A stretch of 47,246 bases of DNA from Gammaproteobacteria bacterium. Lineage in GTDB: Bacteria; Pseudomonadota; Gammaproteobacteria; Ga0077536. Of this stretch, positions 23,384 through 44,692 are shown piece by piece; position 1 is the first letter of the stretch, and the number at the start of each line of letters is the position of its first letter. The stretch spans positions 1 through 47,246 of the forward strand of contig JAURMM010000133.1 in the NCBI GenBank assembly GCA_030830685.1. Direction: 5' to 3'. The position numbers and the translations under genes were made by a program. The notes beneath the pieces were generated by a model. That model saw only the letters and a program-made list of their open reading frames with translations. It made no database searches and was not told the origin of the DNA.

Positions 23384-23432
23384 GGGGTGCTGCTCCGGTA
23401 GGTGAGGCCGCATTCTGCCCGCAATCGGCGCG

Positions 23433-24152
23433 CTATTCACGCCCTCTGGTGAGCTGCTGGCGCAAATCCTCCAGCGCCACGTGACGCACGTCCTTGCCTT
23501 CCACCAGAAAGATCGCGCTTTCGCAGATGTTGTCGGCATGGTCTCCGATACGCTCGAAAGCACGTGCGGCGAGGACGGCATCCAGCACACCGCGGATGCT
23601 GCGCGGATCCTCCATCATGTAGGTGATGAGCTGGCGCATGATCGCCTCCAGCTCCTTGTCCACCTCGGGGTCTTCCTGGGCAACTTCCAGCGCCGCGTGG
23701 GAATCCATGCGTGCGAAGGCATCCAGGGCAGCACGCAGCATGCGCCGCACGTGGTGGCCCATGGCCAGGATGCCGACGTAGTAGCTGTCCTGTCCGCCGC
23801 TGCTCGCGATGCGCGCAACGATACGGGCCACTTTCTTGACCTCGTCGCCTACGCGCTCAAGGTCGGTGATGATTTTGCTGACCGCGAGCACCAGACGCAG
23901 ATCGCCCGCTGCGGGCTGGCGCCGCAGCAGGATGGCGGTGCACTCGCCATCGATGTCCACCTCCATCTCGTTCACCTTGTAATCGCTGGAGGCGATCCGC
24001 TCGGCAAGCTCCATGTCGGTTCGGGCCAGTGCTTCCAGCACCTGACTCAGGGAGTCTTCCACCAGCCCCCCCATGGTCATGACCTTGGATCGGATGTCCT
24101 CCAGTTCCTTGTCGAACTGCTGGGAAATGTGATGCGTACGGGACATGACCAT
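23433..24152 (-). CDS. phoU: Phosphate signalling protein PhoU
   Basis: HISQQFDKELE, RQPAAGDLRLV, DLERVGD, FERIGDHADNICE; alternative start at 24146. Confidence 0.96.
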   Translation of the reverse strand: MVMSRTHHISQQFDKELEDIRSKVMTMGGLVEDSLSQVLEALARTDMELAERIASSDYKVNEMEVDIDGECTAILLRRQPAAGDLRLVLAVSKIITDLERVGDEVKKVARIVARIASSGGQDSYYVGILAMGHHVRRMLRAALDAFARMDSHAALEVAQEDPEVDKELEAIMRQLITYMMEDPRSIRGVLDAVLAARAFERIGDHADNICESAIFLVEGKDVRHVALEDLRQQLTRGRE

Positions 24153-24169
24153 GGCGGTGAACCTCCTGC

Positions 24170-25045
24170 TCAGCCGTATCGGCCGGTGATGTAATCCTCG
24201 GTCTGCTTCTGGCGGGGAGTGGTGAAGAGTTTCTTCGTCTCCCCGAATTCGATCAGATCGCCCATGTACATGAAAGCGGTGTAGTCGGAAACCCGCGCCG
24301 CCTGTTGCATGTTGTGGGTCACGATGACGATGGTGTAGTTCTGCTTAAGCTCATAGACCAGCTCCTCAATCTTGAGGGTCGAGATGGGATCGAGCGCGGA
24401 CGCCGGTTCATCCAGCAACAGCACCTCGGGTTCGATGGCAATCGCGCGGGCAATCACCAGACGTTGCTGCTGCCCACCCGACAGGCCCAATGCACTGTCG
24501 TGCACGCGATCCCGGACCTCATCCCACAGCGCCGCAGCCTTGAGCGAATTCTCTACCGCCTTGTCGAGCACCCGGCGACTGTTCACGCCCTGGATGCGCA
24601 GCCCGTAGGCAACGTTCTCGTAAATGGACTTGGGAAACGGGTTGGGCTTCTGGAACACCATGCCCACCCGGCGTCGCAGATTGGCCACGTTCACCCTGGG
24701 ATCGAAAATGTCATCTCCATGGAGCTTGATGCTGCCTTCGATGCGCACATCGGAAATCAGCTCGTTCATCCGGTTGAAGCAGCGCAGCAGGGTGGATTTT
24801 CCGCAGCCACTCGGCCCGATGAACGCCGTGACGCGCTTCTCCGGGATGGCCATGCTCACACTGTTGAGCGCCCGCTTGTCACCGTAGTAAAGCGACAGCC
24901 CCTCTACCCGCAGGCACTCCCTGTCCGGCTGCTTGGCGTGCTCCTCGCGATGCGCATTGGCGGACCGGAAATCCACGCCATGGGTGAGGGTGGCCGGATG
25001 GCTGGCATCATGCTGAGGGCTCACGTTGTCAGTTGTCTGCGGCAT
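24170..25045 (-). CDS. pstB: Phosphate ABC transporter ATP-binding protein
   Basis: [59 protein letters not shown]. Confidence 0.97.
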
Positions 25046-26684
25046 GGTATTTCTCGCGCAGGCGATTACGGATCTGAATCGCCGCCAGGTTGAGGGAGAC
25101 GATGATGAGTACCAGGAGCAGTGCGGTCGCGAAGACCAGCGGGCGTGCCGCCTCCACGTTCGGGCTCTGGAAGCCTACATCATAGATATGGAATCCGAGG
25201 TGCATGAACTTGCGGTCCAGGTGCAGGAACGGGAACTCCCCGTCCAGCGGCAAGGTCGGCGCGAGTTTTACGACACCCACCATCATGAGCGGCGCCACTT
25301 CACCCGCCGCGCGAGCGACCGCGAGGATGAGGCCGGTCATCATGGCAGGAGTCGCCATGGGCAGCACGGTGCGCCAGAGGGTCTCCGCCTTCGTGGCGCC
25401 GAGGGCAAGACTGCCTTCGCGGATGGCCCGCGGGATGCGGGTGAGCCCCTCTTCCGTCGCCACGATCACGACCGGCACAGTCAGCAGGGCGAGGGTGAGC
25501 GCAGACCACAGCAGGCCGGGCGTGCCAAAGGTGGGCGCGGGAAGTTTTTCTGCAAAGAACAGGCGATCGATGTTGCCGCCCAGGAAGTATACGAAGAAAC
25601 CAAAGCCGAACACGCCATAGACGATGGAAGGGACGCCGGCCAGGTTGTTCACCGCGATACGGATGGCACTGGTGACCGGTCCGGGTTTGGCGTATTCGCG
25701 GAGATAGATCGCGGCCACCACTCCAAAGGGCGTGGCGATGAGGGACATCACCATCACCATGAGTACCGTGCCAAAAATGGCCGGGAAGACGCCGCCTTCG
25801 GTATTGGCTTCGCGCGGCTCATCGCCCACGAATTCTCCCACCTTCATCAGGTAGTGCCAGGCCTTCTCGCCCCAATGCATGTTATTGGGCTGGAAAATCC
25901 TCACCACCTTGCCGAACGGCACCACGCGCTCCTCGCCTGTCGAAGTGCGGAGCAGCAGGCTGTCGCGGTCAAAGCTCGCGTGCAGCTCGGCGATACGGGC
26001 GCTCAGTGCCTTGAAGCGGGCATCCAGCGCCTCGCGTTGTGGCAACAGCGCGCGGGCCCCGGCCTCATCACCCTGCGCACGCAGGCTGCGCTCGCGCAGC
26101 CGCAGGTCTTCGAGTCCGGCATTGATTTGCCCCATTTCCACCCGCTCAAGCTTGCGCAACTCACCGCGCATGTCCTCCACGCGCGCGAGCCTGGGCGGAA
26201 TTTCCTGCCAGGGATCCGTCGCCTGGAGGATGTCTTCCCCTTCCCGCACGGCGACGAGGTAGCCGTAGAAATTCCCCCACTCAGTGCGTTCCGCCACGAG
26301 CACGCCCGAGGGATAGTCGATGTTGCGGATTTCAGTCTCGGGGATCCACCGGAAGTCGGTGCCCCCGATGTCACGGTTGCCGACTTTCACCAGCACGCGA
26401 CGCACCACCACCATGCCCTCGGGAACGGTCCCCCCGGCTTCCCGCACACGGGTCGCTGACACGGTTTCTTCATCCACGATTTCACCCAGCAGGATCTCGG
26501 GTTCAGCTTCGCCCGCCTGCACCGTCAGCGCTGCCACCTGCTTGGGCCAGAAGTGCTCGAGCCCGTTCGCCGCAATCAGGACCAACAGTCCGAACACCAT
26601 CACGAGACTCAGGCTGACCGCACCTGCCGTGAGCCAGATCCAAGGGTTGCCACTCGCCACCCACTGCTGGAGATTCTGTTTCAT
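25029..26684 (-). CDS. pstA: Phosphate ABC transporter permease PstA (long form)
   Basis: [42 protein letters not shown]; large periplasmic insertion. Confidence 0.95.
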
Positions 26685-28939
26685 CAGAGGTTCCCGTACT
26701 TGGCGCGCAGGCGGCTGCGCACGATTTCGGCAATCGTGTTGAACAGGAAAGTGACGCCGAACAGAACGAGCGCCGCGAGAAAAAGAATGCGGTAATGCGA
26801 GCTGTTCACTTCCGATTCCGGCATTTCGACCGCGATATTCGCAGACAGCGCCCGGAAGCCCTGGAAGATGTTCAGGTCCATGATGGGCGTGTTGCCGGTG
26901 GACATGAGCACGATCATCGTCTCACCGACTGCGCGGCCGAGCCCGATCATGATGGCGGAAAAGATGCCGGGGCTTGCGGTGAGTAGCACCACCCGGGTAA
27001 CGGTCTGCCAGGGGGTGGCGCCGAGTGCCAGCGAACCGGTCGTCAACTGGCGGGGCACGCCAAACACCGCGTCCTCACTGATCGAGAAAATATTGGGGAT
27101 TACTGCAAAGCCCATGGCGATGCCCACGACTAGCGAGTTGCGCTGGTCATAGGTGATACCCCACTCCTGGGCGAGCCAGCGTGGCAGGTTGCCGCCGAAG
27201 AAGAGCTGTTCAGCGGGCTGGCTCAAGCCCATCGTGGCCCACAGCACGAGGCAGACCACCGGCACGATGATCATGGCCTCCCAACCATCCGGCACGCGAT
27301 GGCGTGTGGTCTCCGGCAGGTGCGACCACACGTAGGCCGCCAGCAGGATGGCAAGGGGCATGAGAGCCGTGGCGAGAAGCACGCCGATGAGATGACTCTC
27401 GATCAGGGGCGCCAGCCACAGCCCGGCGAGAAAGCCGAGAATCACCGTGGGCAGGGCAGCCATGATCTCGATGGAGGGTTTGACCAGCACGCGCAGGCGC
27501 GGCTGCATGAAGTAGGCCGTGTAAACCGCGCCGAAGATGGCCACCGGAATGGCAAACAGCATGGCATACACGGCAGCCTTGAGGGTACCGAAGGTCAGTG
27601 GCGTCAAGCTGAACTTCGGCTCGAAATCACTGGAGGCAGAGGATGACTGCCAGATGTATTCAGGCCCCGCGCGCCCCTCGTACCACACTTTGCCCCAGAG
27701 CGATTTCAGTGACACTTCCGGATGCTTGTTGTAGACCTCGAAAGTCTCCACCTCACCATCCGCGCCCATGAGAATCAGGGAGTCGGCATGGGGCGCGATG
27801 GCGCCCACCAGCGGCTGGTGGGCGAGAAGCCCTTCTTCCAGCAGCAAGGTGCGTTCCGCGGTTGCGTGGAAAACACCGAGGCCACCCTGGGTGTCCACCG
27901 CCAGAAAGCCCTTGCGGAAATGTTCGGGGATGATGAGCGCAACAGGCGCGGCCAAGCCTTCGAAACGACGGATCCGCGTCATGCGGTAGTTGTTCTCTTC
28001 ATCCCTGACCGGAAACCACTGCGAGACCTGCCCACTGCTGTCGCCGATGAGCAAGGAGACACCACCCGCCAGGAACTCCACGGCCGTGACCTCCTCCCCG
28101 GGCTGCAACACCTGCAGTTCCTGCAGGAGGCGCGGCGCGGTCTTGTCGCGGATGTCGAAAAAATGCATCTGGCCAGTGCGTGAGACCGCGTAGAGTTCCT
28201 GCTGGTCGGAATCGATGGCCAGATAGGCCACGGTCACAGGGAGCCTGCCCACCTCCACCTGGGTCGATTCGAGGGCGCCGTCCAGCTGGAGCAAGGACAC
28301 TGCGCGGGTATAACTCGTGAGGTAGAGGGTTCCATCCTCAGCAAGCGCGGCAATCGTCGCGCCATCGTCGCCCGCCTCGGCCGCGATATGGGTGACCCGA
28401 CGTCCCTCGGGCACCACCGCGACAGGGACCTCGCCCAAGGGCCATGCGAGGGAAGGTGAGGACACCCGACGTTGATCCTCGAAGGTTTCCACATAGGTGG
28501 GGCGTGCGATGACGGCCGTGCCGTCATCGAGCGCGAGCGCCAAGGTGCGTGCGCTGCGCGTGCTGTCATTCGCCGCCTGAAGCTGGCGCCCCGGCGGCAG
28601 CAGGGAGCCGCGAATCAGGACGCGCCCATCCTCCAGGCCATGAAATGCGTAGGAGCCGTCCGCGCCAAGCGCAAAGGCAATGTCGGCGTATTCGTTGAGG
28701 GAGAGCCTGGTGGTCGGTGAAGCCTGCTCGAAGCGTAACGCGGCCGTGTAAGTGACCTCGGCGGAGCGGAAAAGGGGAATCACCACCGCCAGCAGGTACA
28801 CGAAGATGGCCAGGATTGCGCCAATCACGGCGACGCCGCCAACGCCCATCACGAGGCCGAAGAGGCGGTCCTTCAGCATGCGGAACTTGCGCAGTCGCGC
28901 TTCAGATTGGGCGAGATCCGAAAGGGTCGGCTCAGTCAC
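26684..28939 (-). CDS. pstC: Phosphate ABC transporter permease PstC (long form with predicted beta-propeller-like insertion)
   Basis: [58 protein letters not shown]; beta-rich soluble region of about 340 aa after TM1; GTG start. Confidence 0.93.
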   Translation of the reverse strand: MTEPTLSDLAQSEARLRKFRMLKDRLFGLVMGVGGVAVIGAILAIFVYLLAVVIPLFRSAEVTYTAALRFEQASPTTRLSLNEYADIAFALGADGSYAFHGLEDGRVLIRGSLLPPGRQLQAANDSTRSARTLALALDDGTAVIARPTYVETFEDQRRVSSPSLAWPLGEVPVAVVPEGRRVTHIAAEAGDDGATIAALAEDGTLYLTSYTRAVSLLQLDGALESTQVEVGRLPVTVAYLAIDSDQQELYAVSRTGQMHFFDIRDKTAPRLLQELQVLQPGEEVTAVEFLAGGVSLLIGDSSGQVSQWFPVRDEENNYRMTRIRRFEGLAAPVALIIPEHFRKGFLAVDTQGGLGVFHATAERTLLLEEGLLAHQPLVGAIAPHADSLILMGADGEVETFEVYNKHPEVSLKSLWGKVWYEGRAGPEYIWQSSSASSDFEPKFSLTPLTFGTLKAAVYAMLFAIPVAIFGAVYTAYFMQPRLRVLVKPSIEIMAALPTVILGFLAGLWLAPLIESHLIGVLLATALMPLAILLAAYVWSHLPETTRHRVPDGWEAMIIVPVVCLVLWATMGLSQPAEQLFFGGNLPRWLAQEWGITYDQRNSLVVGIAMGFAVIPNIFSISEDAVFGVPRQLTTGSLALGATPWQTVTRVVLLTASPGIFSAIMIGLGRAVGETMIVLMSTGNTPIMDLNIFQGFRALSANIAVEMPESEVNSSHYRILFLAALVLFGVTFLFNTIAEIVRSRLRAKYGNL

Positions 28940-28968
28940 GGGCTATCCGTCTTGATTTGAACAGGTGA

Positions 28969-28992
28969 AGAACCGGGACCGCTCCCGGTTCT
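28969..28992. other. Perfect stem-loop in the pstS-pstC intergenic region
   Basis: AGAACCGGGA-CCGC-TCCCGGTTCT, 10-bp stem with no strong U-tract on the minus strand. Confidence 0.6.
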
Positions 28993-29014
28993 GCAGGTCA
29001 GAGGCAGAGGCTCG

Positions 29015-29048
29015 AGTGTGCGCGCGCATTATGACGAAGCGACGACTG
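29015..29048 (-). promoter_or_regulatory. Candidate internal Pho box plus -10 upstream of pstC
   Basis: Minus strand CAGTCGT-CGCT-TCGTCAT (each half 5/7 to CTGTCAT), 10-nt spacer, then CACACT; same geometry as the pstS promoter. Confidence 0.45.
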
Positions 29049-29079
29049 AAACACAGCCGCCGCTTCGGGGGGAGGGGTC

Positions 29080-30063
29080 TCAGTCGGCGAGTTCGGAGGC
29101 CAGGAACTTCTTGGCCACGCTGGCCGGGAGAGGAATGTAACCGTCCTTGACCACGGTGAGCTGCCCCACCTTGGAGAGCACCATCTTGAGGAACTCCCGC
29201 TCCAGGGGCGGCAGGGCCTTGCCGGGCTCCTTGTTTACGTACACGTACAGGAAGCGCGCCAGCGGGTACTTCCCGGACAGCGCGTTGGCCGGCGTGGCAT
29301 CAACCAGTTCGCCACCGGGCTTGCGTGAGAGGGGGATTATGCGCACACCGGAGGTCTTGTAGCCCTCGCCCGAGTAACCAATGCCGTTCACGGACTTGGT
29401 GATGCCCTGGACCACGGAAGCGGAGCCGGGTTGTTCGTTCACGTTGTTCTTGAAGTCGCCCTTGCAGAGAGCCACTTCCTTGAAGAAACCATAGGTTCCC
29501 GAGACCGAATTGCGACCGAAGAGCTGGATATTCTGGCCGGCCAGTTCACCCGTGAGGCCAAGGTCACCCCAGGTTTTGGGGTCCTTGCCGTGCCCGCAGA
29601 GGCGGGTCGCCGAAAAAATGGCGTCCACCTCGGGAATCGACAGACCCTGGATGGGGTTGTCCTTGTGCACGAACACGGCCAACGCGTCGACCGCCACGGG
29701 GATGGCGGTGGGCTTGTAGCCATGCTTGGCCTCGAAGGCGCCGATTTCCTCACCCTTCATGGTGCGACTCATGGGACCGAGGTTGGCGGTGCCCTCGGAC
29801 AGTGCCGGGGGTGCGGTGCTCGACCCGGCAGCCTGGATCTGCACATTCACATTGGGGTAGAGCTTCTTGAAGTCCTCGGCCCATAGGGTCATGAGATTGG
29901 CGAGGGTATCGGAGCCGATGCTGGACAGGTTGCCGGTCACGCCGCTGACCTTGTTGTAACCGACCAGGCCGGGGTCGAGCGCGTCTTCGGGGCCGGCCGC
30001 CAGGCTCGCGGGGGCCAGCAGGGCCGCCGTGAGCAGCAGCACTGCGCGATTGGGTTTCAGCAC
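29080..30063 (-). CDS. pstS: Phosphate ABC transporter substrate-binding protein
   Basis: Signal peptide; [55 protein letters not shown]. Confidence 0.95.
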
Positions 30064-30115: not shown

Positions 30116-30149
30116 AGTGTTGGACTGAAATATTACAGATTCGTGACAG
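30116..30149 (-). promoter_or_regulatory. Pho box plus -10 of the pstS promoter
   Basis: Minus strand CTGTCAC-GAAT-CTGTAAT (30149-30132), 10-nt spacer ATTTCAGTCC, then AACACT. Confidence 0.85.
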
Positions 30150-30151
30150 CC

Positions 30152-30994
30152 CTAGCGCAGCGCCGCCAGGTAGGCAATCCAGCCTGCATCGGCATCCGCC
30201 GACTCCACGGGCTGGTAATCGCCATCACCTTCATCGGCCTCGTCATCCCACCCCTGCCAGTACACGACGGTCCGCGTGAAGCCGGCCTCCGCCAGTACCT
30301 CCCGTATTTCCGGCAGCGTCCAGAGCCGCCAGTCATAGGTGAATGCCCTGCGCAGCAGGGAGCGGTCCGGGAACTCATAATGAATGTGACAGCGCAGATC
30401 TCCCGTCACAGGGTTGTAGCTGGCCTGGTCCCAGACATAGGTGAAACCCTTCAGTTCGCGCCGCTCCTTCAGCACCCGGAAGGCGTCATAGCCACCGAAA
30501 CAATCGAGCAGAAAGAGACCATCCTCACCCAGGGCCGCACGCGTGGAGCGGAAATAGTCGCGCAGGGCGTCCCGCGTCTTAAAGATCCAGTAACTGAAAT
30601 TCATGGCAAGGATCACATCCTGCGCAGGGGTTACAGCCTTCAGTACATTCTCATTCAACAAGGTGACCCGGCTCCGTTCGCCCTTGGGCAGGGTATTCAC
30701 ATGATGGCTGCGCCCCCAGGCGAGCACCTCCGGATCGAGATCGACCCCCACAGCGCGATTCTGACGATGCCGGCTGACCCAAGCCGTCGCCACGCTTGCG
30801 GTCCCGCAGAAATCCTCGCGCAGATAGCGTGCATTGCGCCCACGCAATTGATGGAATTCACGCTCCACGAAATCGAGCTCGGCATCGGCATCCTGCACCG
30901 AATTCTCGTACAGGCGGTGGCGGTCAGCCTTGGAGGCAAGGGTCTGCCCAGAGACCTTGCGGGTCGTGGTGCGGGGAGTGCGTGCGGCACACAT
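30152..30994 (-). CDS. Class I SAM-dependent methyltransferase of unknown substrate
   Basis: LYENSVQ, LREDFCGTA (motif I variant), GVDLDPEVLAWG, MNFSYW, AFTYDWRLWTLPEIRE. Confidence 0.8.
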   Translation of the reverse strand: MCAARTPRTTTRKVSGQTLASKADRHRLYENSVQDADAELDFVEREFHQLRGRNARYLREDFCGTASVATAWVSRHRQNRAVGVDLDPEVLAWGRSHHVNTLPKGERSRVTLLNENVLKAVTPAQDVILAMNFSYWIFKTRDALRDYFRSTRAALGEDGLFLLDCFGGYDAFRVLKERRELKGFTYVWDQASYNPVTGDLRCHIHYEFPDRSLLRRAFTYDWRLWTLPEIREVLAEAGFTRTVVYWQGWDDEADEGDGDYQPVESADADAGWIAYLAALR

Positions 30995-31115
30995 GGAATT
31001 TGATTGACCTCGCTATACTCGGGAGAAACCGGGGCTGGATATTATCAGGCAGGGCTTGTGCCATCCCATGGCGAGCGCACTGCCCCGCGAATGAATCTTG
31101 AGGGAGACTGTACCC

Positions 31116-33188
31116 GTGGATACCCGTCTGGGCGACCTGAGCGATCCGACGCTCTACATCAACCGTGAGCTGTCGTTGCTGGAGTTCAACCGGCGGGTCC
31201 TGGAGCAGGCCAAGGACGAGGGCAATCCGCTGCTGGAGCGCTTACGCTATCTCTGCATCTCCAGCAGCAATCTGGACGAGTTTTTCGAGATCCGGGTTGC
31301 CGGCCTCAAGGAGCAGGTTGCCTTCAATTCCGGGCAGATGGGCCCGGATCAACTCACGCCATCCGAACAGCTCAAACGCATCGGGGAAGTTGCACACCAG
31401 TTGGTCGCCGAGCAGTACCGGGTGCTCAATGACGTTCTGACGCCGCAGCTGGCAGACGAGGGAATCCGCTTCCTCAAGCGCAGTGAGTGGAATGTGAAGC
31501 AGGCGCAGTGGGTGAAGCGGTACTTCTACCGTGAACTGCTGCCGGTGCTGAGCCCCATCGGGCTCGATCCCTCGCACCCCTTCCCGCGCATCCTGAACAA
31601 GAGTCTCAACTTTCTCGTGTCATTGGAGGGCACCGATGCCTTCGGGCGCAACAGCGTCATCGCCATCGTGCAGGCGCCCCGCGCGCTGCCGAGAATCATC
31701 AACATTCCTGCTTCTTACGCCAGCAGTGCTCACGAATTCGTCTTTCTGTCCTCCACCATCCATGCCCATGTCGAGGATCTTTTTCCGGGCATGGAGGTCA
31801 CCGGCTGCTATCAGTTCCGTGTGACACGCAACAGCGATCTCTTCGTGGACGACGAAGACGTGGAAGATCTCCTGCACGCGCTTGAAGGCGAGCTGCACCA
31901 ACGCCGCTTTGGCGATGCAGTGCGCCTGGAAGTGGCAGTCGAGTGCCCGGACGAGATGGTTTCCCTGCTGCGCAGCGAATTCGAGTTGGGGCCGGAGGAC
32001 ATCTATCGCTGCAACGGCCCGGTGAATCTGACGCGACTCATGGCGGTGCCGGACATGATTGAGCGTCCTGAGCTGAAGTTTTCCTCATTCACGCCCTCGC
32101 GGCCGCGCCAGCTCCCGGTCGGCATCGATTTCTTCGAAGCCATGCGCCAGAACGATCTGCTGGTGCACCACCCTTACGAGTCCTTCTCACCGGTGGTGGA
32201 ACTGTTGCGCCAGGCCGCCGCTGACCCCGACGTCCTCCTGATCCGTCAGACCCTGTACCGCACAGGACCGGACTCGCCGATCGCCAGGACGCTGGTTGAG
32301 GCGGCGCGCGCGGGCAAGGAAGTCACGGTGGTCGTGGAGCTCAAGGCGCGTTTCGATGAGGAAGCCAATATCGAACTTGCCACCCGCCTGCAGGAGGCCG
32401 GGGCACACGTCGTGTATGGTGTCGTCGGTTACAAGACCCACGCCAAGATGATTCTCATCGTGCGGCGCGAGGGCAAGCAGCTGCGTCGTTATGTGCACCT
32501 CAGCACCGGAAACTACCACCCGCGTACGGCCCGCCAGTACACCGACTTCGGATTCTTCACCTGCGACAACACCGCAGGAATGGATGTACAGAAGATCTTC
32601 CACCAGCTCACCGCACCCGGTCGGGCGCTGCGCCTGAAGAAGCTGTTGCAGTCACCCTTCACGCTACACCAGAGCGTGGTGGCGATGATCGAACGCGAGG
32701 CGAGCCACGCCTCCGCCGGGCGGCCCGCGCGCATCGTCGCCAAGATGAACTCACTCATCGAGATCAATGTGATCAAGGCGCTGTATGCGGCATCCCAGGC
32801 GGGGGTGAAGATCGAGCTAATCGTGCGCGGAATCTGCGCGCTGCGTCCCGGCTTGCCCGGAATCTCGGACAACATCCGTGTCCGCTCGATCGTCGGCCGC
32901 TTTCTGGAACATTCGCGCATCTTTCATTTCCAGAACGATGATAACCCCGAGGTGTACCTCTCCAGCGCAGACTGGATGGAACGCAATTTCTTCAATCGCA
33001 TTGAAGTGTGCTTCCCTGTCGAGGACAAGCGTCTGCGCGAGAGGGTGTTGCGCGAAGGGCTTGAGATCTACCTCAACGACAACAGCCGCGCCTGGCTGCT
33101 GGATGCGGACGGGCACTATCACCGCGTGCGAGCCGGTGGCAAGCCGCGGGATGCACAGGCCCAGTTGCTGGCCAAGCTTGCGGAGTGA
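31116..33188 (+). CDS. ppk1: Polyphosphate kinase 1
   Basis: YINRELSLLEFNRRVL, SNLDEFFEIRVAGL, HHPYESF, ELKARFDEEAN, KTHAK, HLSTGNY, IVRGICAL, GRFLEHSR, SADWMERN; GTG 31116 with GAGGGAG upstream (ORF track opens at 31098). Confidence 0.98.
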   Translation: MDTRLGDLSDPTLYINRELSLLEFNRRVLEQAKDEGNPLLERLRYLCISSSNLDEFFEIRVAGLKEQVAFNSGQMGPDQLTPSEQLKRIGEVAHQLVAEQYRVLNDVLTPQLADEGIRFLKRSEWNVKQAQWVKRYFYRELLPVLSPIGLDPSHPFPRILNKSLNFLVSLEGTDAFGRNSVIAIVQAPRALPRIINIPASYASSAHEFVFLSSTIHAHVEDLFPGMEVTGCYQFRVTRNSDLFVDDEDVEDLLHALEGELHQRRFGDAVRLEVAVECPDEMVSLLRSEFELGPEDIYRCNGPVNLTRLMAVPDMIERPELKFSSFTPSRPRQLPVGIDFFEAMRQNDLLVHHPYESFSPVVELLRQAAADPDVLLIRQTLYRTGPDSPIARTLVEAARAGKEVTVVVELKARFDEEANIELATRLQEAGAHVVYGVVGYKTHAKMILIVRREGKQLRRYVHLSTGNYHPRTARQYTDFGFFTCDNTAGMDVQKIFHQLTAPGRALRLKKLLQSPFTLHQSVVAMIEREASHASAGRPARIVAKMNSLIEINVIKALYAASQAGVKIELIVRGICALRPGLPGISDNIRVRSIVGRFLEHSRIFHFQNDDNPEVYLSSADWMERNFFNRIEVCFPVEDKRLRERVLREGLEIYLNDNSRAWLLDADGHYHRVRAGGKPRDAQAQLLAKLAE

Positions 33189-33214
33189 GTGTTGTCTGAC
33201 GGGGTCTGAACAGC

Positions 33215-34789
33215 TCAGCTGGCGAGCGGTTGCGCCAAGCGCCGCACCAGCCACAGGATACGCTCGAAGATACCGGTCGCGACGAACAGCGCCTGGCGTT
33301 CTTCCTTGCCTTCGCCGGCCTGCGCGAGCAAGGCGCTGCGAATCTGCTCCATGAGATCACTGCGATCGGACGTCAGTTCGTGCAGGATTTCCTCGTTGTC
33401 CTCACCTGTGGCCAGCTGATCTGCCAGCAGGCCGAGAATCAGATGCAGTGATTCAGTCATCGAGGACGCGAGGCCCTCATGCCCCTCTTCCCGGCCCAGG
33501 GTCTCCACATACCCATGGAGTGCATCGAGCAGGGAACGCAAGGTGTCGTTGCGCCCCTGCAGCGCAAAGATGCGCGCCACCCATTCATCTGCCCCGCCCT
33601 GAGCGGTGGTCTCGGCGATGAATTCGGCGATGCGCGTACTGAGCGCGGTCGCACCCTGATGCCAAGCCTCACCTGACAGGACTTCGGCCTCCGGATCCAC
33701 TGTGAGCCTCAGAGGATCAAGCGCGCGAGGGAGCTCCCGAATCAACTCCTGCTGCTCCCGGTCTGCCAGCGTGAGCGCCGTCTCTGGATAACGTTCAGCA
33801 TCCGCATACAGGTGCCTTGGCGTGAACCGGCTCCCTGCCGCGTGAGCGCCGGCCAAACGCGCTACCAGCACCAGGGCTTTAGACTGAAAGAGTCCCCCGA
33901 CCAGTGCTCCGGCCAGTTGCAGGAGCAGGTAGAGACAAGCCACCAGGGTAGGCACCGGCACCTCAAGCTCGGCCACGCCGGCCAGCATGGCTGCCGGGTC
34001 TGGAAATGACAGCAGCCACGGCAGCACTGCCAGTACACCCAGCACCTTCACCACGCACTGCCACAGGGCCAGCTGGCGCGGCACTCCCACCAGGTGCGAG
34101 GTCACGAGCGCAACGCTCAAGCCCGAGCCCAGGCTCGCACCACAGACCAGCAGCAGCGCTTCCCGGATAGGCAACACTCCGGACAGATTCAAGGTCACCG
34201 CGAGCACGCTGACGGTAGCAGACGACTGGGCAATCAAGGTCACGATGAGACCGATCAACACCGCAATGGCCGGTGACTCCGCCGAAAACTCGAAGAATTC
34301 GATCACCCAGGGCGCGGCTCGGAGCACCACAGCGCCGTCCTTGATGAGACCGAGGCCCAGCATCAGGATGCCGAGGGCGAAGGCCAGCGTGACCAGATGC
34401 CGTGCGGTGGGATGACGGTTTACGTTGAAGAGATAGGCCAAAGCCACACAAGCGATGGCGTGCAGGCCAATCAGCCGCACATCCACGGCTGCTAGAAATA
34501 CCAGCAGCGAAGTCCCCACGCTGGCCCAGGCACTCAACGTCATGGCGCCTGCAAGCGTGAGTGCGCCGGCATCCAGCAGCCCGATGCAGATGAAGGCTGC
34601 AGCGCTGGTGCTCTGGGTCAAGGCGCCGAGCACCACGCCAGTCAGCGCGGCAGACGACGCACCGCCGGTGACTCGTCCGAGCAAGGCACGGGCGCGGCGC
34701 CCTGCCACGGCCTGCATGCCCTGGGAGAGCAGATGCAGCCCGCTTAGGAAAAGACCGAGGCCAGCAAGACTCGCGGCCGTCTGGCTCAT
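33215..34789 (-). CDS. Na+/Pi-cotransporter family (YjbB/NptA-like) membrane protein, divergent
   Basis: GLGLFLSGL, two repeats with QSTS (aa 59-62) and QSSA (aa 188-191), WASVGT and GASLGS in place of GANIGT; helical soluble C-terminal region of PhoU-like type. Confidence 0.8.
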   Translation of the reverse strand: MSQTAASLAGLGLFLSGLHLLSQGMQAVAGRRARALLGRVTGGASSAALTGVVLGALTQSTSAAAFICIGLLDAGALTLAGAMTLSAWASVGTSLLVFLAAVDVRLIGLHAIACVALAYLFNVNRHPTARHLVTLAFALGILMLGLGLIKDGAVVLRAAPWVIEFFEFSAESPAIAVLIGLIVTLIAQSSATVSVLAVTLNLSGVLPIREALLLVCGASLGSGLSVALVTSHLVGVPRQLALWQCVVKVLGVLAVLPWLLSFPDPAAMLAGVAELEVPVPTLVACLYLLLQLAGALVGGLFQSKALVLVARLAGAHAAGSRFTPRHLYADAERYPETALTLADREQQELIRELPRALDPLRLTVDPEAEVLSGEAWHQGATALSTRIAEFIAETTAQGGADEWVARIFALQGRNDTLRSLLDALHGYVETLGREEGHEGLASSMTESLHLILGLLADQLATGEDNEEILHELTSDRSDLMEQIRSALLAQAGEGKEERQALFVATGIFERILWLVRRLAQPLAS

Positions 34790-34800
34790 CGCGTGAGGCC

Positions 34801-35508
34801 TCAGTCGCGCAGCTTGCGCAGCGCGCCGAAGAGGGCGAGACCCACTATCACCAGGGCTGCCGTCACCACCGCAAGCAAGGTTGTGCGGAGTGTCTGGTAG
34901 CGCTCGAGCATCTGGCGGGAGAGCGCAGCACGCTGGCGGGTGGCGAGATCACTCAGCGCGCCGCTCAGTGCATCCAGTCGTTGCTCCAGTGCCCGATCGA
35001 CGCCTCGCACCCGGCGATCAACCAGCCTCGATTGCGCCAGCGGCAAGCTGTCCCGCGTGGTGAGGGCATCTGAAAGCGCGCGGTCATACACTGTGCTGAG
35101 CGCATCGAAGTCACGGCGCAGGGCCTCGATCTCCCGCGCATGACCGGAAAGCTGGTGAGCGGAGATTTCCCGGGAGAGCTGGCTGAGGATGGCATCCACG
35201 CGTTCACGCCGGGCATGAAACGCGGTTCTGTAATGATGGAGCTCGTCCGGTTCGGCGCCGCGCAGAAGGATGTTCTTCCATTCCTGTACCTGAATTTTGA
35301 ACTCCACCTGCGCCTGCGTGCCGAGACGCGCTGTCTCGCGCAGCCCCTCTGTTTCTTCAATGCCGCGGTTCCAGGCGCGATTCATGGACCAGATCGAAAA
35401 CAGGGACAGCAACCCCACCACCACCAGCACCCCTACCAGTGTGGTGGAAACCGAGATCAGCGCGCTGCGCAGGAGCGCGCTTCGGAGTTTGAGTGTTGGG
35501 GTGTTCAT
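34801..35508 (-). CDS. Two-TM membrane protein with chemoreceptor-type periplasmic four-helix bundle and no cytoplasmic output domain
   Basis: TM about aa 17-40 and 211-230; FKIQVQEWKNILLRG (70-84) and VDRRVRGVDR (163-172); only RKLRD follows TM2. Confidence 0.75.
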   Translation of the reverse strand: MNTPTLKLRSALLRSALISVSTTLVGVLVVVGLLSLFSIWSMNRAWNRGIEETEGLRETARLGTQAQVEFKIQVQEWKNILLRGAEPDELHHYRTAFHARRERVDAILSQLSREISAHQLSGHAREIEALRRDFDALSTVYDRALSDALTTRDSLPLAQSRLVDRRVRGVDRALEQRLDALSGALSDLATRQRAALSRQMLERYQTLRTTLLAVVTAALVIVGLALFGALRKLRD

Positions 35509-35514
35509 GGGATC

Positions 35515-35548
35515 AGCCTACAGGGTAAATGTGACCGCACGGTATCTC
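35515..35548 (-). promoter_or_regulatory. Candidate Pho half-box and -10 for the four-helix-bundle/Na-Pi genes
   Basis: Minus strand CGGTCAC (35537-35531), 10-nt spacer ATTTACCCTG, TAGGCT (35520-35515), 6 nt, then ATG; upstream half-site GAGATAC is poor. Confidence 0.35.
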
Positions 35549-35552
35549 GAAC

Positions 35553-37043
35553 TCAGCGCACGCGCAGCTTCAAGCCCGCAGCCTTGAGGAAACCGGCTTC
35601 CTGTTCGAGATCTGCAGCGACCAGTGCGTGGTCATCGAGCCACAGCTTGGGCAGGACGAGCCGCAGATTCGCACCGTCCACGGTGACGGACATCGCCGGT
35701 AATGCTTGCGCCCTGCGCGCCCTGTGCAGCACCACCGCAAGCCGCAACAGGACACTCAGGCGCCGGCAAGGTTCGCGCTCCGGTTCCGGCAGCTGGACGA
35801 GCTCGGCCTGGGGAAACTTGCGTCTGTGGGCACGCACCAGGAAACCCAGGCGCCGCTGCTCGCCACGCGAAAAACCCGGCATGTCGAGATATTGGAGAAG
35901 GTAGGCGCCGTGTTTCTGGTACTGGGAATGGGACACGCTGGAGCCAATCTCGTGCAGGCGCGCGGCCCAGCGCAGCAGCTGCCTATACGCCGGATCTGTC
36001 AGATTCCAGGCCTCGGCCGCGAACATGTACAAGGCATCAGCGGTCGCCATGACACGAGCGGTCTGGGCTGCATCCACGTGAAAGCGTTGTGCCAGTGCTT
36101 CTACCGTGTGATCACGGATGTCTTCATGCTCGATACGCCCGACGAGGTCATAGAGCACGCCCTCCCTGAGTGCGCTGGTGGAAACCTGCATCTGTTCAAT
36201 GCCAAGTTCTTCAAAGGCGGCCATCACAACGGCGAATCCGCCGGGAAACACCGCGCAGCGGTCTTCGCGGATGCCGAAGCGTGCCAGCTGGTCTACATGC
36301 CCGAAGTCGAGCAGCGCCGCCCTCAGCCGTTGGAGACCGGCGCGGGTGATGCCTTCTGCACTGAACTTGTGCAAGGCCAGGGCATCCGCCACTGCCAGCA
36401 AGGTGCCGGAGGAGCCGATGGCAGACTGCCAGCCTTCACGGCGGAATTGCTCCTCGATCGGTTCGAATTCCTGGCCGGCGGCAAGCTCTGCCGCTCGCAG
36501 GCGCTTGGTGTCGATGCCCCCGTCACTGAAAAACTGTGCGGTCATGCTCACGCATCCCATATGGAGGCTTTCCATGATGCGCGGCTCATGGCGCCGACCG
36601 AGGATGAGCTCGGTACTGCCGCCGCCGATATCCATGACGAGGCGCTGACCGGCAACCTCGGCAAGGCCGTGCGAAACACCCACGTAGATGAGACGGGCTT
36701 CCTCGATCCCGGACACGATGTCGATCGGGTGGCCCAACAGGCGTTCGGCCCGACGCAGGAAAATATCGGCGTTGCGGGCCCGGCGCAGGGCGTTGGTCCC
36801 CACCGCCCGTACCGCACCCGCCGGCAGGTGCCGCACCCGTTCGCCAAAGCGCTGCAAGCACCCTAACGCAGTCTCCATGGCGTCCGCCGTGAGACTGCCC
36901 TCGGCATCCAGACCTGCACCCAGACGGGTCACCTCCCGCAGCCTGTCCAGCACCTTGAGATGCCCGGGACGCGGCTCGGCCACCACCAGATGGAAACTGT
37001 TGGAGCCAAGGTCGATGGCCGCGATGGGATGGGATTGGGGCAT
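35553..37043 (-). CDS. ppx: Exopolyphosphatase (Ppx/GppA family)
   Basis: AAIDLGSNSFHL, RAVGTNALR, ISGIEEARL-type IVSGIEEARLIY, MDIGGGSTE, HD region LHEIG, GFSRGEQ. Confidence 0.93.
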   Translation of the reverse strand: MPQSHPIAAIDLGSNSFHLVVAEPRPGHLKVLDRLREVTRLGAGLDAEGSLTADAMETALGCLQRFGERVRHLPAGAVRAVGTNALRRARNADIFLRRAERLLGHPIDIVSGIEEARLIYVGVSHGLAEVAGQRLVMDIGGGSTELILGRRHEPRIMESLHMGCVSMTAQFFSDGGIDTKRLRAAELAAGQEFEPIEEQFRREGWQSAIGSSGTLLAVADALALHKFSAEGITRAGLQRLRAALLDFGHVDQLARFGIREDRCAVFPGGFAVVMAAFEELGIEQMQVSTSALREGVLYDLVGRIEHEDIRDHTVEALAQRFHVDAAQTARVMATADALYMFAAEAWNLTDPAYRQLLRWAARLHEIGSSVSHSQYQKHGAYLLQYLDMPGFSRGEQRRLGFLVRAHRRKFPQAELVQLPEPEREPCRRLSVLLRLAVVLHRARRAQALPAMSVTVDGANLRLVLPKLWLDDHALVAADLEQEAGFLKAAGLKLRVR

Positions 37044-37078
37044 GGGCAGGCAGTGGCCGTCAGAAGGAGCGCGGTCCG

Positions 37079-37084
37079 ATTATA
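37079..37084 (-). promoter_or_regulatory. -10 hexamer upstream of ppx
   Basis: Perfect TATAAT on the minus strand 35 nt upstream of the ppx ATG; no clear -35. Confidence 0.5.
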
Positions 37085-37118
37085 GGCCTGCGCTAACGCC
37101 TTTGCCGCACTGCGTGAG

Positions 37119-37124
37119 TATAAT
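37119..37124 (+). promoter_or_regulatory. -10 hexamer upstream of typA
   Basis: Perfect TATAAT 30 nt upstream of the typA GTG; no clear -35. Confidence 0.5.
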
Positions 37125-37154
37125 GCCGGCCCCCCGCCCCACCCGGACATCCCC

Positions 37155-38975
37155 GTGATCCAGAAGCTCCGCAATATCGCCATCATCGCGCACGTCGATC
37201 ATGGCAAGACCACACTCGTCGACCAACTGCTCCGTCAGTCCGGCACCCTCAACCAGCGCAAGGATACGGGCGAGCGCGTGATGGACAGCAATGATCTCGA
37301 GCGCGAGCGCGGGATCACGATTCTTGCCAAGAACACCGCCATCACCTGGGGCGATTACCACATCAACATCGTCGACACCCCCGGCCACGCCGATTTCGGT
37401 GGCGAGGTGGAGCGCGTGCTGTCCATGGTGGATTCGGTGCTGCTGCTGGTCGATGCGGTGGAAGGCCCGATGCCCCAGACCCGCTTCGTGACGCACAAGG
37501 CGTTCGCGCAAGGCCTGAAGCCCATCGTGGTGATCAACAAGATTGATCGACCCGGCGCACGTCCGGACTGGGTGCTGGATCAGACTTTCGATCTCTTCGA
37601 TCGCCTGGGCGCAACGGAAGAACAGCTGGATTTCCCCGTGATCTATGCCTCGGCCATGCTTGGCTATGCCAAGCACACGCCAGGCGGTTCCGAGACCGAC
37701 ATGACTGCGCTGTTCGAAGCCATCGTCGCGCACGTGCCGCCGCCGGATGTGGATACCGAGGGTCCGTTCCAGATGCAGGTCAGCTCGCTCGATTACTCGA
37801 GCTATGTGGGCGCCATCTGCATCGGCCGCATCAAGCGCGGCACCATCCGCCCGAACACCAATGTCACCATCATCGATGCACAGGGTGCCACACGTAACGA
37901 GCGCATCCTGGAGGTGCTCGGCTTCCATGGCCTCACGCGCGAGGCACGCAGCGAAGCCAGCGCCGGCGACATCGTGGCACTCACCGGCATCGAGGCACCC
38001 CGCATCTCGGACACACTGTGCCTGCCCACTGCCGTGGAAGCGCTTCCCGCACTGCTGGTGGATGAACCCACGGTGAGCATGAGTTTCGAGGTTTCTGATT
38101 CGCCGTTCGTGGGTCGTGAGGGCCAGTTCGTGACGAGCCGTCAGCTCGGTGAGCGTCTGCAGCGCGAACTGATTCACAACGTGGCCTTGCGCGTAGAGCC
38201 GACCAACGATCCGAAGGTGTTCAACGTATCAGGACGCGGCGAGCTGCATCTGGCAGTGCTCATCGAGAACATGCGGCGCGAAGGGTATGAGCTGGCAGTT
38301 GGTCGCCCGCAGGTGATCCTGAAGGAAATCGATGGCGAGATGTGCGAACCCTACGAGCAGCTCACCGTGGATGTGCCTACGGAAGCACAGGGTGCGGTGA
38401 TGGAGAAGCTGGGTTCCCGCAAAGGCACGCTCAACGACATGGTGCCGGACGGCAAAGGTCGCGTGCGCCTCGACTACTCGATTCCCTCACGGGGCCTCAT
38501 CGGTTTCCGCACCGAGTTCATGACCGCCACCTCGGGTGAAGGCCTCATCTACCACACCTTCGAGAAGTATGCGCCAGTGAAGCCAGGAAACCTCGGCGGC
38601 AGGGTGAACGGGGTGCTCATCTCGAACGGGGAAGGCAAGGCACTCGCCTACGCCCTGTTCAGCCTGCAGGAGCGCGGACGTCTGTTCGTGGGCCACGGGG
38701 ATGAAGTGTATGAAGGCATGATCATCGGCCTGCATTCACGCGACAACGATCTGGTCGTGAACCCGCTGAAGGCCAAGCAGCTGACCAACATCCGCGCCGC
38801 GGGCAGTGATGAAAATCTCCTGCTGACGCCCCCCATCCGCTTCGATCTGGAGCAGGCGCTGGAATTCATCGCGGATGACGAGCTGGTGGAAGTCACGCCG
38901 GGCGCCATCCGCGTGCGCAAGCGCATGCTGAAGGAAACCGATCGTAAGCGCGAATCCCGCCAGAAATCTGCCTGA
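37155..38975 (+). CDS. typA: Translational GTPase TypA/BipA
   Basis: [55 protein letters not shown]. Confidence 0.97.
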
Positions 38976-41802: not shown

Positions 41803-43340
41803 CAGTGTTCTCCGGGGCGGACGGAAGAGGGATCGGCGGAGCTCACGCCGCGCCCACGCATGCACCAGGCAAGCAGCGCAGCGGCCACCAGGCCAATGCT
41901 GGCGACCGTACCGAAAAGCTCGCTCAGGGTGAAGCGTTCGTAGACTGCGGCCACCCGCCCACCGAGATAATTGCCGACTGAGGCTGCAAGAAACCAGACT
42001 CCCATGGTGAGCCCGGCGATGCGCGCAGGTGCCAGGCGCGTCATCGCGCTGAGGCCCACGGGCGAGAGACACAGTTCACCCAGTGAGTGCAGGACATAGG
42101 TCGCCACCAGCCAGAGCGGACTGACCTTGACGCCTGTGGCCGCGAGCTGCGCCGCCATGAACAACACGCCGAAGCCTGCGGCCACGAGCAGCAGCCCCAG
42201 GGCGAACTTGGTGGTTGGCGCAGGGTTACGGGATCCAAGACGCACCCAGAAGACCGCAAACACGGGGGCAAGCGAAATGATGAGCATGGGGTTCAAGGAA
42301 TGAAACCAGGTGGTCGGGAAGGCATAGCCCAACCAGTCGAGGTGGCGATCCGTGTTCCGCTCCGCGAACAGGGTGAGCGTGGAACTGCCCTGTTCGAACA
42401 ATGACCAGAACACCACGGCGCCCAGGAACAAGACCAGGATGAGTCGCAGATTGCGGCGCTCTTCCTCACTCCAACCGGGTGCGAACAACAGCCAGCCGAA
42501 GAAGAGAATCACCAGGGTTAGCAGCAAGCCACCGAACAGATTGCTCAGGTCCTGAACGGAGATGTGCCCAAGCGCCATCGCAGCGGCGAGGATGATCACC
42601 ACCCCGAGGGCGCTCGCCGAGGCATGGCGCAGCCGCCGCCATTCGCGTGGGCCCGGCGCGTGCGCGGGATGTTCACTCGCGGCAGGCAGAACTGCGCGCG
42701 CACGCTGAAAAATCACGAGACCGATGAGCATGCCGAGGGCGGCCGCACCAAAGGCGGCATGCCACGCCAACTGCGGCGAGAGGCCCGCGCCCTGCAGCCA
42801 GGCGCGGACCGGCGGTGACAGGGCAAGCCAGCCGCAGGCGAGGGGCGCGAGGAAGGCACCGATGTTGATGCCCATGTAATACAGCGAGAAACCGCTGTCG
42901 CGGCGCGGATCGCCCGGACCATAGAGCTGACCGACCAGAGTGCTGATGCTGGGCTTCAGCAGGCCCGTGCCCAGCACCAGGAACGCCATGCCGAGGTAGA
43001 GACCATCCGGCACAGGCCAGGCCATGCAGAGATGTCCGGCCAGAATCAGCAAGCCACCAGAGAGCGTGGCGCGCCGGGTACCGAGGAACCGATCGGCCAG
43101 CCAGCCGCCGGGCAGGCAGGCGAGGTACACGAGACCCGAATAAAGGCCATAGATGGCGCCGGCGCGTGCGACATCAAAACCGAGGCCACCCTCGCTGACT
43201 GCCGCCGTCATGTAGAGCACGAGCAGGCCGCGCATGCCGTAAAAGCTGAAGCGCTCCCACAGCTCAGTGTGAAAAAGCGGGCTGAGGCCCGGTGGATGGC
43301 CCCATCTACCCTGAGCAGAGCGCAGCTGGTCATCGGGCAT
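41802..43340 (-). CDS. POT/PTR family proton-dependent oligopeptide transporter
   Basis: TELWERFSFYGMR (ExxERFxYY-like), GGWLADRFLG, GTGLLKP, FSLYYMGINIGA, LGELCLSPVG. Confidence 0.93.
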   Translation of the reverse strand: MPDDQLRSAQGRWGHPPGLSPLFHTELWERFSFYGMRGLLVLYMTAAVSEGGLGFDVARAGAIYGLYSGLVYLACLPGGWLADRFLGTRRATLSGGLLILAGHLCMAWPVPDGLYLGMAFLVLGTGLLKPSISTLVGQLYGPGDPRRDSGFSLYYMGINIGAFLAPLACGWLALSPPVRAWLQGAGLSPQLAWHAAFGAAALGMLIGLVIFQRARAVLPAASEHPAHAPGPREWRRLRHASASALGVVIILAAAMALGHISVQDLSNLFGGLLLTLVILFFGWLLFAPGWSEEERRNLRLILVLFLGAVVFWSLFEQGSSTLTLFAERNTDRHLDWLGYAFPTTWFHSLNPMLIISLAPVFAVFWVRLGSRNPAPTTKFALGLLLVAAGFGVLFMAAQLAATGVKVSPLWLVATYVLHSLGELCLSPVGLSAMTRLAPARIAGLTMGVWFLAASVGNYLGGRVAAVYERFTLSELFGTVASIGLVAAALLAWCMRGRGVSSADPSSVRPGEH

Positions 43341-43492
43341 GGCGACAGTGTTCCTTGTGCGCGATCAGTGTCACACGCTAACACCCGGACGCAGCGGTGT
43401 CGAAAAGCCTGCGCTTGCAGCCGGGTGACGCCACCACGCCCCTCGGCTAAAGTGCCAGTCCCTTATCAGGCAGCCAGCATCAGGAGAGGCCC

Positions 43493-44671: not shown

Positions 44672-44692
44672 CCCGTCCAAGGCAGCCCCCTC

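Follow-up and report, generated by a model that had tools for sequence, protein, structure and literature searches.

A divergent NptA/YjbB-type carrier with replaced sodium-site residues, encoded beside a sensor-like gene in a gammaproteobacterial phosphate gene cluster

Introduction

In human SLC34A2, phosphate (Pi) is held by the Ser residues of both QSSS motifs together with Thr192 and Thr465, according to a preprint (bioRxiv 10.64898/2026.05.25.727688). The same preprint describes a sodium site, Na3, with the symmetric ligands Asn189 and Asn224 from repeat 1 and Asn462 and Asn495 from repeat 2; its authors locate Na3 away from the path of translocation and do not count it in the network of Pi/Na interactions, hold that it is not transported, and call it "most likely" structural. 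Among bacterial carriers, Escherichia coli YjbB is cited as a Pi exporter whose overproduction lowers polyphosphate (PMC7980370, citing Motomura 2011), and the PhoU domain of Staphylococcus aureus NptA modulates PhoPR activity and probably import (PMC13170248). The four-helix-bundle domain of Pseudomonas aeruginosa CtpH binds phosphate with a KD of 22 uM (PMC4926252). Here we analyze a carrier gene at 33215..34789 on the minus strand of contig JAURMM010000133.1 (assembly GCA_030830685.1; Gammaproteobacteria, Ga0077536) and the sensor-like gene directly upstream of it; the window is the whole stretch analyzed, 47,246 nt. The original prediction, made from the sequence of this window, had noted that the Asn of the GANIGT motif is replaced by Ser in both repeats of the carrier, and had proposed a different coupling ion or substrate, or a sensing role. 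We find that the carrier, which appears to be functional, falls in a large and uncharacterised clade that diverges from the rest of the bacterial NptA/YjbB (PNaS) family, and that, judged from the aligned proteins, its Ser/Ser state represents one result of remodelling of the Na3 site across the clade.

Results

The carrier is intact and has the architecture of NptA and YjbB

33215..34789, minus strand: carrier gene, 524 aa, divergent NptA/YjbB-type, with two Na_Pi_cotrans repeats and a C-terminal PhoU-fold domain
33218..33802, minus strand: C-terminal PhoU-fold domain, aa ~330-524, recognised by a VIA-align fold match

The intact frame of 524 aa that the original prediction had described is confirmed: it is open throughout, begins with ATG and has a GAGG 9 nt upstream of that codon. 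Compared with orthologues of 94% and 85% identity, the ratio of nonsynonymous to synonymous substitution (dN/dS) is ~0.09, near the 0.07 of the neighbouring ppx, which indicates that the carrier is under purifying selection and is a working rather than a decaying gene. Pfam finds two PF02690 (Na_Pi_cotrans) matches at 115.4 bits against a cut-off of 29.1, both repeats being recovered again by a genome search, and the protein passes the broad Na/Pi symporter subfamily model NF037997 of NCBIfam (77.6 bits; cut-off 50); it stays below the cut-off of the NCBIfam hypothetical equivalog TIGR00704, Na/Pi-cotransporter II-related (97.3 versus 210.1 bits).

The AlphaFold2 (AF2) model of the carrier, built with 99 aligned sequences, has a mean pLDDT of 90.9. 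Residues 330-524 match seven PhoU or PhoU-like chains (1sum, 1t72, 1xwm, 2i0m, 3kmi, 3l39 and 2iiu) with VIA-align Z scores of 15.5-12.8 over 164-190 aligned residues, well above the scores of unrelated helical rows. This PhoU domain is recognised by fold alone, Pfam giving no PF01895 match in the carrier, and it dominates the VIA-wide matches of the whole model. The membrane core had no Foldseek match in a PDB set ending April 2026, which may lack 9z60-9z66. With two repeats followed by a C-terminal PhoU fold, the carrier has the architecture of NptA and YjbB.

Carrier motifs and the SLC34A2 ion and phosphate sites

34604..34615, minus strand: hairpin-1 motif QSTS, aa 59-62, aligned to SLC34A2 Gln158-Ser161
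34511..34528, minus strand: repeat-1 motif WASVGT, aa 88-93, with Ser90 at Asn189 (Na3 ligand) and Trp88 for the canonical Gly
34217..34228, minus strand: hairpin-2 motif QSSA, aa 188-191, aligned to SLC34A2 Gln431-Ser434
34124..34141, minus strand: repeat-2 motif GASLGS, aa 217-222, with Ser219 at Asn462 (Na3 ligand) and Ser222 at Thr465
34046..34060, minus strand: segment Q244-C-V-V-K248 of transmembrane helix 6 (TM6), with Gln244 at His491 (and His220) and Lys248 at Asn495 (and Asn224)

The four hairpin and repeat motifs lie where the original prediction had put them, and its view that the two Asn positions belong to an ion site also stands. Residue equivalences were counted along HMMER alignments to chain 9z60_A, in which Ser90 and Ser219 correspond to the Asn of GTNIGT and GSNIGT, namely Asn189 and Asn462, two of the four Na3 ligands of human SLC34A2; GASLGS was itself aligned onto both GTNIGT and GSNIGT of SLC34A2a chains (9z60 and others). 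The H-x-x-F-N motif (His220/Asn224 and His491/Asn495) is matched by Gln244 at its His and by Lys248 at its Asn. Because Ser90, Ser219 and Lys248 align to Asn189, Asn462 and Asn495, three of the four Na3 ligands are altered, two to Ser and one to Lys; for Asn224, no polar equivalent was placed in repeat 1 of the carrier. The codons concerned (AGC for both Ser, AAG for Lys248) are each one base away from an Asn codon. At the Na1/Na2 residues Thr195, Asn196 and Thr197 of SLC34A2, the carrier has Leu, Val and Phe.

The phosphate site fares differently from the sodium sites. Five of the six side-chain donors named for SLC34A2 are still Ser or Thr (S60, S62, S189, T93 and S222), the exception being A191, and the Q-S core is present at both hairpin tips, the third and fourth positions of which deviate from the canonical S-S. 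Since the Q-S cores of both tips and Thr93/Ser222 are kept, the carrier probably still binds phosphate or a similar oxyanion; since several other Na-site residues are replaced, its Na+ dependence is probably reduced or different.

The divergent clade departs from a nearly invariant canonical state

The canonical baseline comprised 38 loci, 30 of them the top PF02690 hits in a set of 301 genomes from the phylum and the other eight from relatives of the window's genome (L009-L017, eight of nine having a usable open reading frame), together with 119 close relatives of a canonical protein, P0116. The state G-N/N/H/N was found in 33 of the 38 loci and in all 119 P0116-like proteins; the five deviating loci have Asp in repeat 2 (three loci), Gln for His (one) or Asp90 with Lys248 (one). 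In 48 diverse canonical rows, Asn90, His244 and Asn248 each occur 47 times and Asn219 occurs 44 times, and the third and fourth hairpin positions are S-S in 46-48. Ser was absent from both Asn positions in these 48 rows and in the 119 P0116-like proteins, so the suspicion that Ser might be common among ordinary stand-alone NptA/YjbB proteins finds no support in this sample.

The carrier's own clade was collected by a phmmer search against 1.84 billion cluster representatives, which gave 5704 proteins at E<=0.001 and 276 clusters of 50% identity at E<=1e-30; among the 150 listed of these 276 matches, most are full-length, at 520-560 aa. Canonical PhoU-bearing proteins match the carrier only at ~1e-16 and over ~40% of the query. 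Motif columns were read from 262 retrieved proteins aligned with the carrier, and 13 rows (10 canonical, three gapped at the motifs) were left out of the state count. Both Asn are present in 42 of the 149 clade representatives at 50% identity, only that of repeat 1 in 70, only that of repeat 2 in 15 and neither in 22; just three of the 149, the carrier included, are Ser/Ser. Loss of these Asn is thus common within the clade, while Ser at these positions is absent from the sampled canonical proteins.

The position counts below compare the 48 canonical rows with 253 subfamily rows unless another denominator is given; the 119 P0116-like rows give the same Asn counts. SLC34A2 equivalents are in brackets.

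Position 88: canonical G in all sampled; subfamily W 216/250
Position 94 (Ser193): canonical T 48/48; subfamily S 137, A 60
Position 96 (Thr195): canonical T 47/48; subfamily L 219/253
Position 97 (Asn196): canonical G 32, A 13, S 2, T 1; subfamily V 225/253
Position 222 (Thr465): canonical T 44/48; subfamily S 209/253
Position 223 (Thr466): canonical T 33, C 14; subfamily G 187/253
Position 225 (Thr468): canonical T 45/48; subfamily S 154, A 41
Position 244 (His491): canonical H 47/48; subfamily Q 229/253
Position 248 (Asn495): canonical N 47/48; subfamily K 168, R 26, N 39, D 9

A basic residue, K or R, therefore stands at position 248 in 194 of the 253 subfamily rows. Q59 is kept in 240 and S60 in 239, and Q188, S189, G92 and T93 are likewise kept across the subfamily; S, N, T and A all occur at the fourth hairpin position, the equivalent of Ser434 being Ala in the carrier. 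As read from these columns, the signature of the clade is broader than the two Asn: the phosphate-binding tips are kept and residues named for Na1-Na4 are replaced.

Order and association of the site changes

A FastTree phylogeny of 298 rows, rooted on nine canonical rows, was built from proteins of 480-640 aa and full-length frames from loci; three longer proteins and fragments were left out. Outward from the root, the states run GN/N-HN, GN/N-QN, WN/N-QN, WN/x-QK and WS/x-QK. In a 107-row clade with a support of 100, Asn90 is gone in every row shown, replaced by S, G or P, and K/R248 is present in every row shown. K/R248 is found in 58 of the 59 rows that lack Asn90 and keep Asn219, and in 30 of the 40 that retain neither Asn; Asn248 is accompanied by Asn90 in 37 of 39 rows.

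The original prediction had treated the paired Ser as one symmetric change, and the tree does not bear this out. The 33 Ser/Ser rows are interleaved with S/N and G/N rows and need seven changes, at least four of them forced by supported branches.

An acidic residue at position 90 occurs with a nearby basic residue in three groups: D90 with K248 in the canonical locus L089, D90 with R248 in P0215, and E/D90 with K244 and D248 in P0152, P0178, P0242, P0253 and P0255. The L089 product (G136:C98) is NptA-like and of canonical type; its repeat 1 reads GADIGT and Lys occupies the position of the TM6 Asn, an Asp-Lys pair that arose independently at the Na3 positions. P0242, P0253 and P0255, at 816-870 aa, combine the charge-swapped site with an N-terminal extension of ~300 aa.

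The upstream gene encodes a receptor-like domain without an output

34801..35508, minus strand: sensor gene, 235 aa, transmembrane helix/four-helix bundle/transmembrane helix, without output domain; ends 11 nt ahead of the carrier start

In its AF2 model (pLDDT 93.1), the sensor protein has helices at 3-83, 87-117, 121-149, 157-167 and 172-234, so arranged that a transmembrane helix runs into a four-helix bundle and back into a transmembrane helix. About 100 stand-alone relatives of 210-250 aa share the motifs FKxQVQEWKNILLRG and D..RGxDR, and the dN/dS of the gene is 0.19-0.20. No Pfam family was matched by the protein; in 56 members of its family, PF12729 (4HB_MCP_1) gave weak matches to two, the best at E 0.17, and its neighbours in a protein atlas carry 4HB_MCP_1, TarH or CHASE3. 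No solved sequence relative was found, and a Foldseek search with the model returned no match at E<=0.001, Vc1313, QseE, NarQ and TorS appearing only among the weak rows.

A profile of the sensor hit 44 of the 301 genomes of the phylum. At 18 of 19 loci examined, a longer open frame begins with the domain, and all nine of these frames checked by Pfam carry methyl-accepting chemotaxis protein (MCP), histidine-kinase or GGDEF domains, seven with HAMP; at the nineteenth, a stand-alone copy is followed by a subfamily carrier gene. Since MCPs, histidine kinases and GGDEF proteins start with homologous domains, the sensor protein is a receptor domain without an output, in agreement with the orphan receptor domain that the original prediction had seen next to the carrier. 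An exact look-up of four MCP-like proteins bearing the domain gave no named record.

Linkage was counted at 61 carrier loci, 58 from a metagenome scan and three from genomes, of which 54 had enough upstream DNA to be evaluated. The scan used a 22-row alignment, and one of its two patterns demanded S or G at the repeat-1 Asn, so that the 58 loci over-represent forms without that Asn. The sensor gene stands directly upstream on the same strand in 40 of the 54, with carrier rows 30-100% identical, and it does so in genome G317 too. By Asn state (repeat 1/repeat 2), loci with and without the sensor number 7 and 4 for S/S, 16 and 4 for S/N, 11 and 0 for G/N, 2 and 0 for N/S, 1 and 0 for N/C, and 3 and 6 for other or unknown states. 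We had considered Ser/Ser as the mark of a sensor-owning clade, in line with a suggested check on whether such a clade co-occurs with the four-helix-bundle gene, and rejected it, as four evaluable Ser/Ser loci lack the sensor and other states have it. Present upstream across Asn states, the sensor gene is a feature of a wide section of the clade rather than of Ser/Ser carriers.

Three further loci are recorded here for their gene contexts. At L056:1-5611, CheA-like and CheB-like genes are immediately followed by a subfamily carrier (WG/H, Q, K) that has no sensor gene, and the open frame of this carrier reaches ~190 aa upstream of the first repeat. HATPase_c_2 and GPP34 genes adjoin each of two distantly related pairs, L037:5590-7178 and L063:935-2382, an arrangement that may recur.

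Genomic setting

35553..37043, minus strand: ppx (exopolyphosphatase), Ppx-GppA 254.5 bits, 44 nt upstream of the sensor gene
31098..33188, plus strand: ppk (polyphosphate kinase 1), four PP_kinase domains, convergent with the carrier with 26 nt between the stops
23433..30063, minus strand: pstS, pstC-like, pstA-like, pstB and phoU (PBP_like_2, BPD_transp_1 twice, ABC_tran, PhoU)
30152-30994, minus strand: SAM-methyltransferase-like gene, 280 aa, between pstS and ppk, 93% identical at the same place in L019

Carrier, sensor and ppx are all oriented towards ppk, which faces them. The genome, which is 91% complete, yielded no other PF02690 gene and no Pit-type carrier. One of five other congeners keeps a 56%-identical carrier-sensor pair elsewhere in its genome; carrier and sensor together form a movable unit that came to lie behind ppx in this lineage.

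Promoter and terminator predictions across 32900-37400 did not exceed chance and neither support nor exclude a single ppx-sensor-carrier transcript. Two aquatic metatranscriptome runs from two studies contain short contigs (151-256 nt, 0-4 differences) that fall in the carrier, the 5' end of the sensor gene and ppx; none bridges two genes, and carry-over of DNA is possible.

A Pho-box-like direct repeat, CTGTCACGAATCTGTAAT, lies at 30132-30149 on the minus strand, 69 nt upstream of the pstS-like start, with two mismatches to the consensus. It is the best of seven matches in the window at up to three mismatches, where 3.5 are expected by chance, and the same scan found no such site upstream of ppx. 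The two Pst permease genes (25029-28939, minus strand) are unusually long, encoding 751 and 551 aa with BPD_transp_1 only in the C-terminal parts. AT skew in 2-kb windows makes strong excursions of -0.21, +0.25 and -0.13 (22001-24000 and 42001-46000).

Discussion

The reading that we favor, at a probability of about 0.5, is that the protein carries phosphate and has a tethered amine instead of a structural Na+, with an altered Na+ dependence, and that it works with a sensor-like partner. In this scheme, the TM6 Asn became Lys or Arg (Lys248 here) and the neighbouring His became Gln, and the lysine amine would sit where Na3 sits. With Lys in place, the two GxNxGT Asn would be dispensable and could have given way repeatedly to Ser, Gly, Cys or Ala, with Ser90/Ser219 as one such end state. 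Na+-independent transporters in which a Lys or Arg side chain replaces the bound ion include ApcT (Lys158) and CaiT (Arg262). The partner would most likely be the stand-alone four-helix-bundle membrane protein encoded just upstream, and the carrier's own PhoU-fold domain would be regulatory. A setting of ppx, ppk and pstSCAB-phoU fits a role in moving the phosphate that polyphosphate gives up; the direction might be outward, the one proposed for E. coli YjbB. The YjbB and NptA reports fit a role in phosphate homeostasis, and they prove nothing for this carrier. What the data show directly are the residue states, the clade, the folds and the linkage of the genes; Lys in the Na3 site, the substrate, the transport direction, the coupling and any contact between carrier and sensor protein are inferences from these.

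Of the proposal that the Ser changes signal a new coupling ion, one part falls and another gains. The Ser changes alone do not argue for it, because the authors of the SLC34A2 structures hold Na3 to be probably structural and untransported. The wider remodelling, with Lys at the Asn495 position, Gln for His and Leu, Val or Gly at other Na-site positions, nevertheless points to a changed Na+ dependence.

Several observations weigh against the tethered amine or against the link to polyphosphate. The proximity of Lys248 to Ser90 and Ser219 is inferred from alignment to a published description, not from measured distances. The association of K/R248 with loss of the Asn falls short statistically, since supported branches offer only three independent contrasts (sign test p = 1, no power). 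K/R248 is already present in 28 N/N rows, so that Lys does not force Asn loss; a clade of four loci (L069, L073, L074 and L079) has Ser90 with Asn248 and Glu244, and four canonical proteins have Asp219 without a basic partner. Because branches near the root of the FastTree phylogeny are long and the composition of many rows is unusual, the order of changes is an interpretation, not a proof. As to setting, placement with ppx and ppk is seen only in relatives of 85-100% identity, ppk and ppx are directly convergent without the pair in five of five congeners, and the flanks of the pair in 15 other loci are without phosphate genes except for one CYTH gene.

Were the protein an ordinary Na+/phosphate symporter or YjbB-like exporter, Ser, Gln and Lys would be neutral drift at a structural site and the upstream gene would be unrelated. 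That Na3 is untransported and outside the Pi/Na network, as the SLC34A2 authors state (10.64898/2026.05.25.727688), speaks for drift, as do the kept core of the phosphate site, the architecture shared with NptA and YjbB, and the fact that Ser and Asn are both small and polar, with each Ser codon a single base from Asn. Neutrality is hard to reconcile with near-invariance of the same positions in canonical proteins (Asn90, His244 and Asn248 in 47/48, Asn219 in 44/48), and drift would hardly be expected to conserve a mid-membrane Lys or Arg in 194 of 253 rows. Na1, Na2 and Na4 positions are replaced as well, and an unrelated neighbour would not be expected upstream in 40 of 54 evaluable loci whose carrier rows span 30-100% identity. 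We regard plain drift as unlikely.

A sensor or "transceptor" is slightly less probable again. Here the degenerate core would bind phosphate without moving it and, with the sensor and the PhoU domain, report to PhoR/PhoB or to polyphosphate enzymes. The degraded Na sites and the position of both genes within a phosphate gene cluster suit such a role; elsewhere the partner domain feeds HAMP-MCP, histidine-kinase and GGDEF outputs, and the PhoU domain of S. aureus NptA modulates PhoPR (PMC13170248). The hairpin Q-S cores, Gly92, Thr93 and the two-repeat scaffold, however, are under strong purifying selection, as for a working carrier, and the flanks of the pair hold no conserved output or kinase gene. 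With no Pit-type carrier found and this the sole PF02690 gene in a 91%-complete genome, there is also room for a real low-affinity carrier.

A different substrate (sulfate, arsenate, phosphite, pyrophosphate or an organic phosphate), with motif changes that retune selectivity, is improbable, since five of six SLC34A2 phosphate donors remain Ser or Thr and the PhoU-fold domain and local pst/ppk/ppx setting point to phosphate, even if the variable fourth hairpin position (S, N, T or A; Ala in the carrier at Ser434) and the pair's lack of a phosphate-gene neighbourhood outside this lineage lean the other way.

The phosphate carrier with a tethered amine, which we prefer, can be extended to a two-subunit, ligand-controlled phosphate valve, in which the periplasmic receptor, devoid of any kinase or MCP output, directly gates a Na3-free carrier (Lys248) and PhoU senses the cytoplasm, the whole being placed behind ppx. 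This extension is speculative and, as a complete scheme, doubtful. If true, phosphate derived from polyphosphate would be let out or taken up on an outside signal, and the coupling of a receptor to a transporter would be of a kind not described for the PNaS family.

The first SLC34 structures identify the Asn of GxNIGT with a central Na+ site, and the bacterial clade described here appears as a natural experiment that removes this site: one ligand seems to have been replaced by Lys or Arg and the other Asn then lost repeatedly. Whether a lysine stands in for the ion bears on the role of Na3 in the medically important SLC34 carriers and on the ion dependence of widespread, unstudied bacterial phosphate carriers. 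The pairing with a receptor domain that has no output suggests periplasmic control of a secondary carrier, and the position between ppx and ppk gives a way into the question of how bacteria clear the phosphate that polyphosphate sets free. The literature searched contained no description of the carrier subfamily or of the carrier-sensor pairing.

Comparison with known systems

Like NptA of S. aureus and YjbB of E. coli, the carrier has two inverted Na_Pi_cotrans repeats, Q-S hairpins and a PhoU-fold C-terminus within the range of ~520-560 aa, and like YjbB, the overproduction of which is reported to lower polyphosphate (PMC7980370), it is linked to polyphosphate genes. Unlike them, it has W-x-S for G-x-N in repeat 1 and Ser for Asn in repeat 2, Q...K for H..FN in TM6, and S-L-L and G-L-S in place of the T-T-x-T stretches; its PhoU domain is invisible to Pfam, it misses the TIGR00704 cut-off, and it has a conserved upstream sensor gene.

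The core repeat is homologous to that of vertebrate SLC34A2 (NaPi-IIb; 9z60-9z66; profile E = 3.3e-18), and the hairpin tips that bind phosphate and the Thr/Ser after G-x-x-x-G are kept. The carrier differs from SLC34A2 in having Ser90, Ser219 and Lys248 for Na3 Asn and Gln for His491, and it lacks the large extracellular domain and adds a PhoU-fold domain.

With ApcT and CaiT, the carrier shares a conserved basic mid-membrane residue where relatives coordinate Na+. These two have the LeuT fold, which differs from that of the carrier; the ion replaced here is thought to be structural, and Lys248 is placed from alignment alone. The sensor protein, finally, resembles the four-helix-bundle domains of chemoreceptors such as CtpH in being a transmembrane/four-helix-bundle/transmembrane module, a likeness of topology, and differs from chemoreceptors in having neither HAMP nor a signalling domain.

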